A stretch of 18,936 bases of DNA from Candidatus Latescibacterota bacterium (lineage in GTDB: Bacteria > Latescibacterota > UBA2968): NCBI GenBank assembly GCA_038279365.1, contig JAYODI010000002.1, positions 25,551 to 44,486 of the forward strand, given 5' to 3'. A model generated the notes under the pieces. That model searched no databases, was not told the DNA's origin, and saw nothing but the letters and a program-made list of their open reading frames with translations. Both the position numbers and the translations under genes were made by a program. The stretch's first letter is position 1, and each line of letters starts with the position of its first letter. Positions 14,488 through 15,207 of this stretch are shown here, one piece after another.

Positions 14488-15207
14488 ATGAACCTTGAGT
14501 TCATCGGAATTGGCAGTTTTTTTGCCAAAAACAATTTCCACAACAACGTGCTCATAAATAATAACATACTCATCGATTGTGGTTTTATGGCCGGGCATGG
14601 ATTACACACCAGTGGTCGCACTTTTGGGCAAATTGAACACATATTCATTACCCACACCCACGCCGATCATATTGGTGGCCTTGAAGAATGTGCCTTTTTT
14701 AACAAATTTGTAAACGGGGGTGCCAAACCCAACTTATATGTGCCTACGCCTTTGTCAGACAAACTCTGGGCCTATTCACTCAGAGGCGGGCTTGAAGATA
14801 TTGAAACTGGTGGTGCAACCCTTGCAGACTATTACAATCTGATTCCAGTAAAAGATGAGTTTGAAATTGAAGACATTCACTTTGAAGTGGTTCCCACCAA
14901 CCACGTGCCCAACCGCTTTTGCTGTGGCCTCAACATCAACAAACGCATTTTCTTTTCGGGCGACACCCAATTTGATGCCGATTTGATTCAAAAATATGGC
15001 ACCAATGCCGAAGTGATCTATCACGACGCCCAATTTTTTACGGGTGGCATTCACGCAAGCCTCGAAGAACTCAGCACCCTCCCCCAATCCCTCCGAAGCA
15101 AAACAACCCTTATGCATTTGCCAGACAACTATGTCGATCATATTGATGCGGCCAAAGAACAAGGGTTTGGCATTGTAGAACAACACAAACCCTACAAGTT
15201 CAAATAG
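14488..15207 (+). CDS. MBL-fold metallo-hydrolase, Apyc1-like cyclic nucleotide phosphodiesterase
   Basis: LIDCG; THTHADH (HxHxDH); TNHV; SGDT; HDAQ; HAS; LMH metal ligands. The extended motifs GSFFAK, HIGGLEE.A..NKFV.GG, LW..SLRGGL and QFFTGG.HASL.EL match the Apyc1 family as I recall it. GGAG SD. Confidence 0.85.
   Translation: [239 protein letters not shown]

Follow-up and report, generated by a model that had tools for sequence, protein, structure and literature searches.

Our main finding is that a Latescibacterota chromosome carries, between purM and holA, a bona fide gene of the Apyc1 family of metallo-beta-lactamase (MBL)-fold enzymes, and that its product is probably a housekeeping phosphodiesterase, turning over the 3',5'-cyclic mononucleotides (cNMPs) made by the sensor cyclases of the genome. 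The stretch analyzed, hereafter the window, consists of 18,936 nucleotides of Candidatus Latescibacterota bacterium (GTDB lineage Bacteria; Latescibacterota; UBA2968; assembly GCA_038279365.1, contig JAYODI010000002.1, positions 25,551 to 44,486 of the forward strand), and the gene lies at its positions 14488-15207. An earlier annotation made from the letters alone, the original prediction, had seen here a cellular homologue of the phage anti-Pycsar nuclease Apyc1 in a housekeeping context. This is correct in substance, but not new: a host role and a bacterial origin of Apyc1 had already been raised in 2022 (PMC9117128) and 2024 (PMC11370490).

The window sequence reads at 14488-15207 of the plus strand as an open reading frame (ORF) running from ATG to TAA, and the antisense strand is closed by many stops across the same interval. 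The ATG at 14488 is supported as the start, because the N-terminal motif MxLEFxG of the 239 amino acid product (P0001) is common to its homologues. This protein matches Pfam family PF23023 (Anti-Pycsar_Apyc1) with 143 bits against a cutoff of 50 (E value 1.4e-41), over residues 3-238 and profile positions 5-246 of 250, and in a six-frame search of the genome the gene scored 144.7 bits with the same profile. Generic MBL families of Pfam reached 47-53 bits, PF02112 (PDEase_II, the classical class II cyclic AMP (cAMP) phosphodiesterase) was not among the Pfam matches at E <= 0.001, and PHROGs returned phrog_392, a 'metal-dependent hydrolase'. With phmmer, the best matches among all PDB sequences were 7T28 (E 1.4e-44), 7U2S (1.4e-42) and 7U2R (3e-38), which are the Apyc1 proteins of phage Bsp38, Paenibacillus xerothermodurans and Paenibacillus sp. 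J14, respectively (PMC9117128). These chains were followed by 7FCT (4.6e-20, 75 bits) and the RNase Z 1Y44 (9e-6), and no YhfI chain was found at E <= 0.01.

The predicted structure leads to the same family. An AlphaFold2 model built from an alignment of 74 sequences had a mean predicted local distance difference test score (pLDDT) of 97.1 and a predicted template modelling score of 0.93. When it was compared with the PDB using Foldseek, ranks 1 to 4 went to 7U2S, 7U2R and 7T28, with template modelling (TM) scores of 0.95/0.92 for 7U2S (root mean square deviation, rmsd, 1.4), 0.93 for 7U2R and 0.86 for 7T28. Lower ranks held MBLBt2 (7FCT, TM 0.79-0.80), the Bacillus anthracis ELAC homologue (1ZKP, 0.73-0.74), YhfI (6KNS/6KNT, 0.73-0.75 at 14-15% identity) and RNase Z entries (0.65-0.76, rmsd 3.7-6.4). 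Because Apyc1 structures occupy the top ranks of both phmmer and Foldseek, the nearest solved relatives by sequence and by predicted fold are neither RNase Z nor other MBL enzymes, and the likeness to Apyc1 put forward in the original prediction is borne out. The four protein blocks quoted there are all present in the translation, at residues 54-78, 83-102 (LYVP..L...LW..SLRGGL), 112-116 (LADYY) and 179-195. By all the sequence and structure criteria applied, the 239 amino acid protein is a member of the Apyc1 family, with the exception of one tyrosine that is specific to a subgroup.

The catalytic machinery is conserved. Ten residues (D30, H56, H58, D60, H61, H139, D159, H189, H210 and D213) are invariant in all 74 aligned homologues, and E66, the counterpart of the catalytic glutamate E74 of SBSphiJ Apyc1 (PMC9117128), is invariant in one homologue alignment and nearly invariant in a second. 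The exception concerns Y112 of SBSphiJ Apyc1, which that enzyme needs for hydrolysis of cyclic CMP (cCMP) (PMC9117128): this tyrosine, within GGLRY, aligns with D104, within GGLED, so that the window protein has no Tyr at this position. The equivalent residue is N in 7U2S and Q in 7U2R, and because these crystallized Paenibacillus proteins are also devoid of Tyr, we attribute Tyr-112 to the SBSphiJ/Bsp38 subgroup rather than to the family as a whole. Beyond GGL, the protein can be aligned to 7U2S without a gap; this segment exceeds that of 7U2R by one residue and falls short of those of Bsp38 and SBSphiJ4 by two.

A homodimer is also predicted. It scored 0.88 in three runs, the best of three controls reaching 0.00; this mark was attained by 20 of the 30 proteins whose solved structure is a pair of one chain, and by 1 of the 23 solved as a single chain. 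At least 95% of contacts recur between runs, with a partner pLDDT of at least 93, and the predicted interface includes residues 57-59, 63-64, 66-67, 95-101 and 103-107, E66 of one copy touching residue 59 of the other. This modelled geometry fits the published composite active site. As Apyc1 dimers have already been solved, the score may reflect the memory of the model, and we take it as a likeness rather than as independent proof.

To place the gene in its lineage, searches covered the window genome (6.03 Mb in 199 contigs), 53 GTDB genomes of its order and a sample of 168 genomes of the phylum. An Apyc1-like gene above the Pfam cutoff is present in 9 genomes of the order, the window genome included, and in 10 of the phylum sample. 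The eight other carriers of the order, which belong to two GTDB families, all have it at the same locus, between purM with the small ORF and holA (the contig of one of them, G002, holds only the end of purM), in support of the housekeeping setting that had been proposed. The relative L013 shows the same synteny; a scan of a genome collection gave, among the matches listed, one close relative and many weak MBL matches. Identities of the orthologues to the window protein (85, 74, 65, 63, 58, 58, 57 and 49%) broadly track those of the flanking PurM and HolA; the ratio of nonsynonymous to synonymous substitution rates against the three nearest orthologues is 0.06-0.11, at synonymous divergences of 1.6-2.2, which are near saturation; and the GC content of the gene (0.446) falls within the range of the window (0.437-0.493). 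The Apyc1-like gene is chromosomal, vertically inherited and under purifying selection.

Genomes devoid of the gene have a clean junction, purM and holA lying about 220 bp apart in G027, 320 bp in G004 and 250 bp in G026. The locus reads purM, small ORF, MR_MLE gene, holA in G009, and RND gene, 159 amino acid ORF, small ORF, holA in genus g5. A search of the purM-holA gaps of G027, G004 and G014 for gene remnants at E <= 10 returned a single 10-residue chance match, and absence is not judgeable in G082, whose contig ends just after purM, or in G001, which yielded neither holA nor purM. Most simply, the gene would have been present ancestrally at the purM-holA site and then lost several times; an early single insertion would look alike. 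We give these contrasts by GTDB genus only, PurM having been rejected as a species-tree marker for the order because genus g5 has a divergent purM elsewhere in the genome.

Several features of these loci deserve mention in their own right. In all 20 g5 genomes with a PurM match, the protein is 37-39% identical and encoded elsewhere, compared to 61-76% in the other genera of the order, which suggests that purM was replaced by a divergent copy in this genus. In G014, for example, the syntenic site, in which the 159 amino acid ORF has no family match, is at G014:C1:1225745-1229770 (L104) and purM at G014:C1:3718222-3719208. An MR_MLE (enolase-superfamily) gene is found just 5' of holA at L095 (G005, 1629-3609), L096 (G011, 5767-7086) and L121 (G009, 1620-2813); it follows the Apyc1-like gene in G005 and G011 and the small ORF in G009, and was confirmed with Pfam in G005 and G009 and inferred in G011 from a similar N-terminal sequence. 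The G005 locus also has a HEPN and nucleotidyltransferase pair, typical of a toxin-antitoxin module. The tenth carrier of the phylum sample, G072, holds a second, distant type of the family, a long copy of 297 amino acids in an unrelated context (L125, G072:C360, 4377-5270, plus strand; PF23023 100 bits, 34% identical to the window protein). It adjoins a gene for a 1,400 amino acid subtilase/FG-GAP protein, has no synteny with the window, and resembles by its length a group of 273-300 amino acids found mainly in Spirochaetota records.

The signalling context of the genome fits a role in cNMP turnover. Six class III cyclase domains are encoded, each joined to a GAF, MASE10, CHASE2, receiver or HAMP module, and there are 22 cNMP-binding matches, in about 20 proteins. 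Class III cyclases occur in 9 of 9 carriers of the order versus 8 of 44 non-carriers, and in 10 of 10 carriers of the phylum sample versus 77 of 158 non-carriers; they look necessary, but not sufficient, for the Apyc1-like gene. Among the eight cyclase-bearing non-carriers of the order, two (G004, G009) have a truly empty locus, three (G001, G081, G082) have a locus that was not assembled or not found, and three are g5 species with a single cyclase each, of about 1,220-1,250 amino acids. Genus g8 includes both states: G036 has the gene and cyclases, and G026 has neither. CpdA-type enzymes are the usual housekeeping cAMP phosphodiesterases of bacteria; the genome search found none (best 29 bits against a cutoff of 225), nor any match to PF02112.

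Of the 22 cNMP-binding matches, 14 lie, on many contigs, in open frames of 154-199 amino acids, too short for a CRP-type regulator with its DNA-binding domain; such near-stand-alone cNMP-binding proteins form an unusually large set in this genome. On one contig (L098, G000:C41:1-3477, minus strand), a GAF-cyclase gene (1402-3012) is followed by a hydrophobic ORF of 192 amino acids without family (855-1433) and an ORF of 184 amino acids (83-637). The last consists of a cNMP-binding domain only, the PycTIR models of PADLOC matching that part alone, and has no TIR or other effector domain. This trio is possibly a small cNMP signalling cassette.

Within the window, the genes are ordered as follows: an ORF of unknown function, tilS, ftsH, folP, a GGDEF protein gene, a TolC-MFP-RND efflux operon, purM, the small ORF, the Apyc1-like gene, holA, trx, fliL (minus strand), galU and a GHMP kinase gene. 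The coordinates of the gene, its key codons and its immediate neighbors are given in Table 1. The original prediction placed the gene between purM and holA; these neighbors do provide a housekeeping setting, but purM is not its immediate neighbor, the apparent 208-bp gap after purM being filled by a conserved ORF of 60 codons. The product of this small ORF has a hydrophobic N-terminal helix, a basic linker and a conserved C terminus (SQIQDADFKDL), and belongs to no Pfam or PADLOC family. At E <= 0.02, tblastn detected it in 10 of the 11 related loci examined (in the eleventh, a 21-residue match only), as well as in G009 and G080, and still lies 5' of holA in genomes without the Apyc1-like gene.

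Table 1. Positions in the window of the Apyc1-like gene, its functional codons and the genes flanking it
Feature	Position	Strand	Basis
Apyc1-family MBL-fold cyclic-nucleotide phosphodiesterase gene (predicted)	14488..15207	+	ORF, PF23023, PDB phmmer, Foldseek
GGAG, likely ribosome-binding site, 6 nt 5' of the ATG	14478..14481	+	Sequence reading
HxHxDH metal-motif codons (H56, H58, D60, H61)	14653..14670	+	Aligned to H64/H66/D68/H69 of the SBSphiJ4 phage protein
E66 codon, equivalent of catalytic E74 of SBSphiJ Apyc1	14683..14685	+	Alignment
Loop codons, residues 103-107 (EDIET), 3' of SLRGGL; segment bearing Y112 in SBSphiJ Apyc1	14794..14808	+	Alignments
purM, upstream neighbor, 9 nt 5' of the small ORF	13219..14280	+	TIGR00878, 404.7 bits
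Small ORF (60 amino acids) between purM and the Apyc1-like gene	14290..14472	+	Sequence, conservation
holA (DNA polymerase III delta), starting 13 nt 3' of the Apyc1-like stop codon	15221..16282	+	TIGR01128, 268 bits

Since the spacers separating purM, the small ORF, the Apyc1-like gene and holA measure 9, 15 and 13 nt, the four probably form one transcription unit, holA being probably cotranscribed with the Apyc1-like gene. Consensus promoter and terminator scans of positions 13100-16900 gave no excess over chance (5 versus a shuffled mean of 5.2, and 7 versus 5.1). Contigs from RNA libraries that are identical to the window fall inside the gene in X14 (14910-15079) and X17 (14803-14953); another X14 contig (14350-14678) spans the boundary from the small ORF into the gene, and the junction between purM and the small ORF is bridged in X15, X17 and X18.

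Scans of the window with Pfam, NCBIfam, PHROGs, PADLOC and for tRNAs revealed no phage, integrase, tRNA or defence genes, PADLOC giving only generic AAA+ cross-matches of FtsH; the absence of prophage and defence genes nearby, which had been noted from the sequence, therefore stands.

Elsewhere in the window, the TolC-MFP-RND operon (7618-13149, plus strand) separates the GGDEF gene from purM, an arrangement shared by G005 only. The GGDEF gene is followed directly by purM in G003, G008, G011, G036 and G080, and the operon seems to be a lineage-specific insertion into a block that is otherwise conserved. An open frame of 302 amino acids that runs off the window start (3-911, plus strand) was matched by no family of Pfam, NCBIfam, PHROGs or PADLOC. 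As listed, the ORFs of tilS (1048-2460) and ftsH (2424-4577) overlap by 37 nt (2424-2460); since the match to the FtsH equivalog model begins at residue 86, ftsH may in truth start further downstream.

We consider it likely that the gene encodes a housekeeping cNMP phosphodiesterase serving cNMP turnover for the sensor cyclases of the genome. The enzyme would be a homodimer of the two-metal MBL type, in which HxHxDH and the downstream His and Asp ligands would hold the metals that bind the cyclic phosphate, while E66 and loop 103-107 of each subunit would complete the active site of the other. It would open 3',5'-cNMPs to 5'-NMPs. Expressed constitutively, in a transcript shared with purM, the small ORF and holA, it would clear the cAMP and cyclic GMP (cGMP) made by sensor-linked class III cyclases. 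Bacterial Apyc1 homologues with an intact loop cleave cAMP, cGMP, cCMP and cyclic UMP (cUMP) in assays (PMC11370490), and by analogy the window protein would probably cleave cCMP and cUMP as well, if these are present. Two purposes had been suggested for such an enzyme. Signal turnover is favored by the six sensor-linked cyclases and the many cNMP-binding proteins. Limiting cyclic-nucleotide immunity is not: no SMODS/CD-NTase domain (the CBASS cyclase) was found in the genome, nor was any recognizable Pycsar system, PADLOC and its Pycsar effector models having been run on selected ORFs only.

A number of observations weigh against this function, or against parts of it. With D104 in place of Y112, the cleavage of pyrimidine cNMPs is uncertain; the comparison of loops is indirect, the bounds of the 'Apyc1-specific loop' being defined in published figures only, and some homologues with altered loops are weak or inactive (PMC11370490). 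The gene can be dispensed with, being absent from 44 of the order's 53 genomes. Moreover, G004 and G009 kept cyclases despite a truly empty locus, and outside the order 69 of 70 cyclase-bearing genomes have no Apyc1-like gene. Because the genomes are related and independent events few, the co-occurrence with cyclases is supportive as a description but does not amount to a test. No further enzyme dedicated to cNMP hydrolysis was found, in searches that left aside HD-domain and divergent metallophosphoesterase types and in which that for class I (PF00233) was uninformative, its control matching no genome. Finally, the RNA contigs are only a weak hint of expression, because the libraries can contain carried-over DNA; parts of the gene are uncovered, and no contig bridges its junction with holA, which is not evidence against cotranscription.

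Other functions are conceivable. The protein might be a phosphodiesterase restricted to cAMP and cGMP, like Bacillus subtilis YhfI or the 'MBL phosphodiesterase', and lack the relaxed specificity of Apyc1. We regard this as unlikely, though well worth considering: closely related MBL enzymes of B. subtilis strongly prefer cAMP and cGMP (Hobbs et al., PMC9117128), an Asp is aligned with the catalytic tyrosine of SBSphiJ, and only sensor-linked class III cyclases of the signalling type were found, so that nothing in the genome calls for cleavage of pyrimidine cNMPs. However, assayed Apyc1 proteins of broad specificity are much nearer relatives than YhfI, both in sequence (phmmer E of 1e-38 to 1e-44 versus none at E <= 0.01) and in predicted fold (TM 0.93-0.95 versus 0.73-0.75), the post-GGL segment of the window protein is ungapped relative to 7U2S, and the Paenibacillus Apyc1 proteins do without the tyrosine too. 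We give little credence to the idea of an RNA or other phosphodiester hydrolase, acting in tRNA 3' processing in the manner of RNase Z/BN, or on 2',3'-cNMPs, short oligonucleotides or cyclic dinucleotides. Homologues do bear the names 'ribonuclease BN' (JGI) and, in one case, 'ribonuclease Z' (NCBI), and since no RNase Z of the genome exceeds the TIGR02651 cutoff, elimination does not dispose of that activity. Yet the NCBIfam RNase Z models (TIGR02651, NF000801) match only residues 22-83, around HxHxDH, with 47-48 bits against cutoffs of 252-293; 239 residues, against about 300 profile positions, leave no room for a tRNA-binding arm; the fold matches are weaker; and other MBL ORFs of the genome (304 and 331 amino acids) fit the RNase Z model at least as well. 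The position of the GGDEF gene just 5' of purM in relatives without the RND insertion speaks for a hydrolase of this kind; against it, Apyc1 activity is reported to be specific to Pycsar rather than CBASS signalling (Hobbs et al., PMC9117128).

The least probable explanation, to which we attach very little weight, is a gene concerned with immunity, either a host brake on a Pycsar-like cyclic-pyrimidine defence or an anti-defence gene left by a prophage. It draws on the discovery of the family as a phage anti-Pycsar enzyme and on the suggestion that hosts might regulate Pycsar (PMC9117128), on the PycC models of PADLOC, which match cyclase domains with up to 94 bits, and on the GAF-cyclase lying two genes from a cNMP-binding ORF on another contig. 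The PycC matches, however, cover the shared catalytic domain only, all six cyclases carry sensory modules, and the neighboring cNMP-binding ORF is without an effector domain. The missing SMODS, the lack of phage, integrase, tRNA and defence genes in the window, the position fixed across two families and the distance from phage sequences are further points against it. A counter-defence gene of phage or mobile origin was considered separately and rejected, the gene being syntenic and chromosomal, with neither phage nor defence neighbors and no recognizable Pycsar in the genome.

Of 50,697 phage records, 188 gave a match, all below 60% identity (best 39.8%), and 185 of these are Bacillus phages. 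At E <= 1e-10, the family comprises 642 representatives after clustering at 50%; the window clade is a single one, and the next representative is 46% identical. We built a tree of 98 rows (quick IQ-TREE, LG+G4, with the SH-like approximate likelihood ratio test as sole support), which took 57 of 150 listed representatives, namely those of 225-300 amino acids among ranks up to P0185. The 18 rows of the window clade, including L013, form one group (support 99). Two unnamed representatives join the phage proteins SBSphiJ4, BSP36 and 015DV004 (98), in a weakly supported set (85) to which a Paenibacillus sequence also belongs, and BPS13, PBS1 and SBSphiC form, with a Staphylococcus phage and a Clostridium sequence, a separate deep branch (99). 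Because the phage proteins branch elsewhere, the window clade is not the specific source of known phage genes. The suggestion that it represents the host pool from which phages took Apyc1 finds no support for this copy: known phage proteins are at most 40% identical to it and branch near Bacillota sequences.

Among characterized enzymes, the chromosomal Apyc1 proteins of Paenibacillus sp. J14 (7U2R), P. xerothermodurans (7U2S) and Cohnella (assayed in PMC11370490) are the most similar in kind, sharing the Pfam family, the metal ligands, the glutamate and a non-mobile chromosomal location. With 7U2R and 7U2S, the window protein also has in common the predicted fold (TM 0.93-0.95, rmsd 1.4-1.6) and the lack of Tyr at SBSphiJ position 112, but it is only 33-36% identical to the Paenibacillus proteins and belongs to a separate, well-supported clade. 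Unlike the Bacillota genes, it comes from an uncultured diderm lineage, where it is fixed between purM with the small ORF and holA. To phage Apyc1 (SBSphiJ; Bsp38, 7T28) it is linked by the best PDB match, by equivalents of HxHxDH and E74, and by a predicted homodimer whose interface brings the loop to the active site. It differs from the phage enzymes by an identity of about 40%, by D104 for Y112 and a loop shorter by two residues, and by being encoded outside phages, on a separate branch, in a genome where no Pycsar was found. YhfI (6KNS/6KNT), the purine-preferring MBL phosphodiesterases and MBLBt2 (7FCT) share the MBL fold of class II type, a similar size and the metal motif, but are much more distant. 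RNase Z/BN (TIGR02651; 1Y44, 2FK6) shares the fold and HxHxDH, and the window protein is about 60-80 residues shorter, with no tRNA-binding arm. CpdA-type cAMP phosphodiesterases (class III, metallophosphoesterases) resemble it in the proposed turnover of cAMP, but have an unrelated fold.

These results are in line with published views of the family. Hobbs et al. (2022, PMC9117128) report that bacterial Apyc1-like proteins cleave cNMPs broadly and suggest that host enzymes might regulate Pycsar or other cNMP signalling. In the AntiDefenseFinder paper (PMC11370490), 80.7% of 2,301 Apyc1 instances lie outside mobile elements, the activity of homologues depends on an intact loop, and three phage clades are nested among bacterial ones, from which it was concluded that Apyc1 arose in bacteria for the regulation of cNMP signalling. 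A full-text literature search, which left out published tree figures and supplements, returned no paper that pairs Apyc1 with Latescibacter*.

It is possible, but rather doubtful, that the Apyc1-type enzyme is the sole dedicated cNMP phosphodiesterase in the order and forms an evolutionary module with class III cyclases, ancestral at one fixed site and cleanly excised where cyclases were also lost (g5, g7, g9 and one g8 species). If true, this would make the order a natural loss series showing that a chromosomal Apyc1 serves signal turnover and not immunity. Knowledge of the enzyme family itself is unchanged by our analysis; through the losses seen among relatives, function becomes open to comparative study. 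The fixed, non-mobile site, the signalling cyclases and the lack of recognizable cyclic-nucleotide defence argue against treating every Apyc1 match as anti-defence or prophage content. The gene provides a clean example, from outside the Bacillota, for the view, already in the literature, that Apyc1 had its beginnings in bacterial housekeeping.

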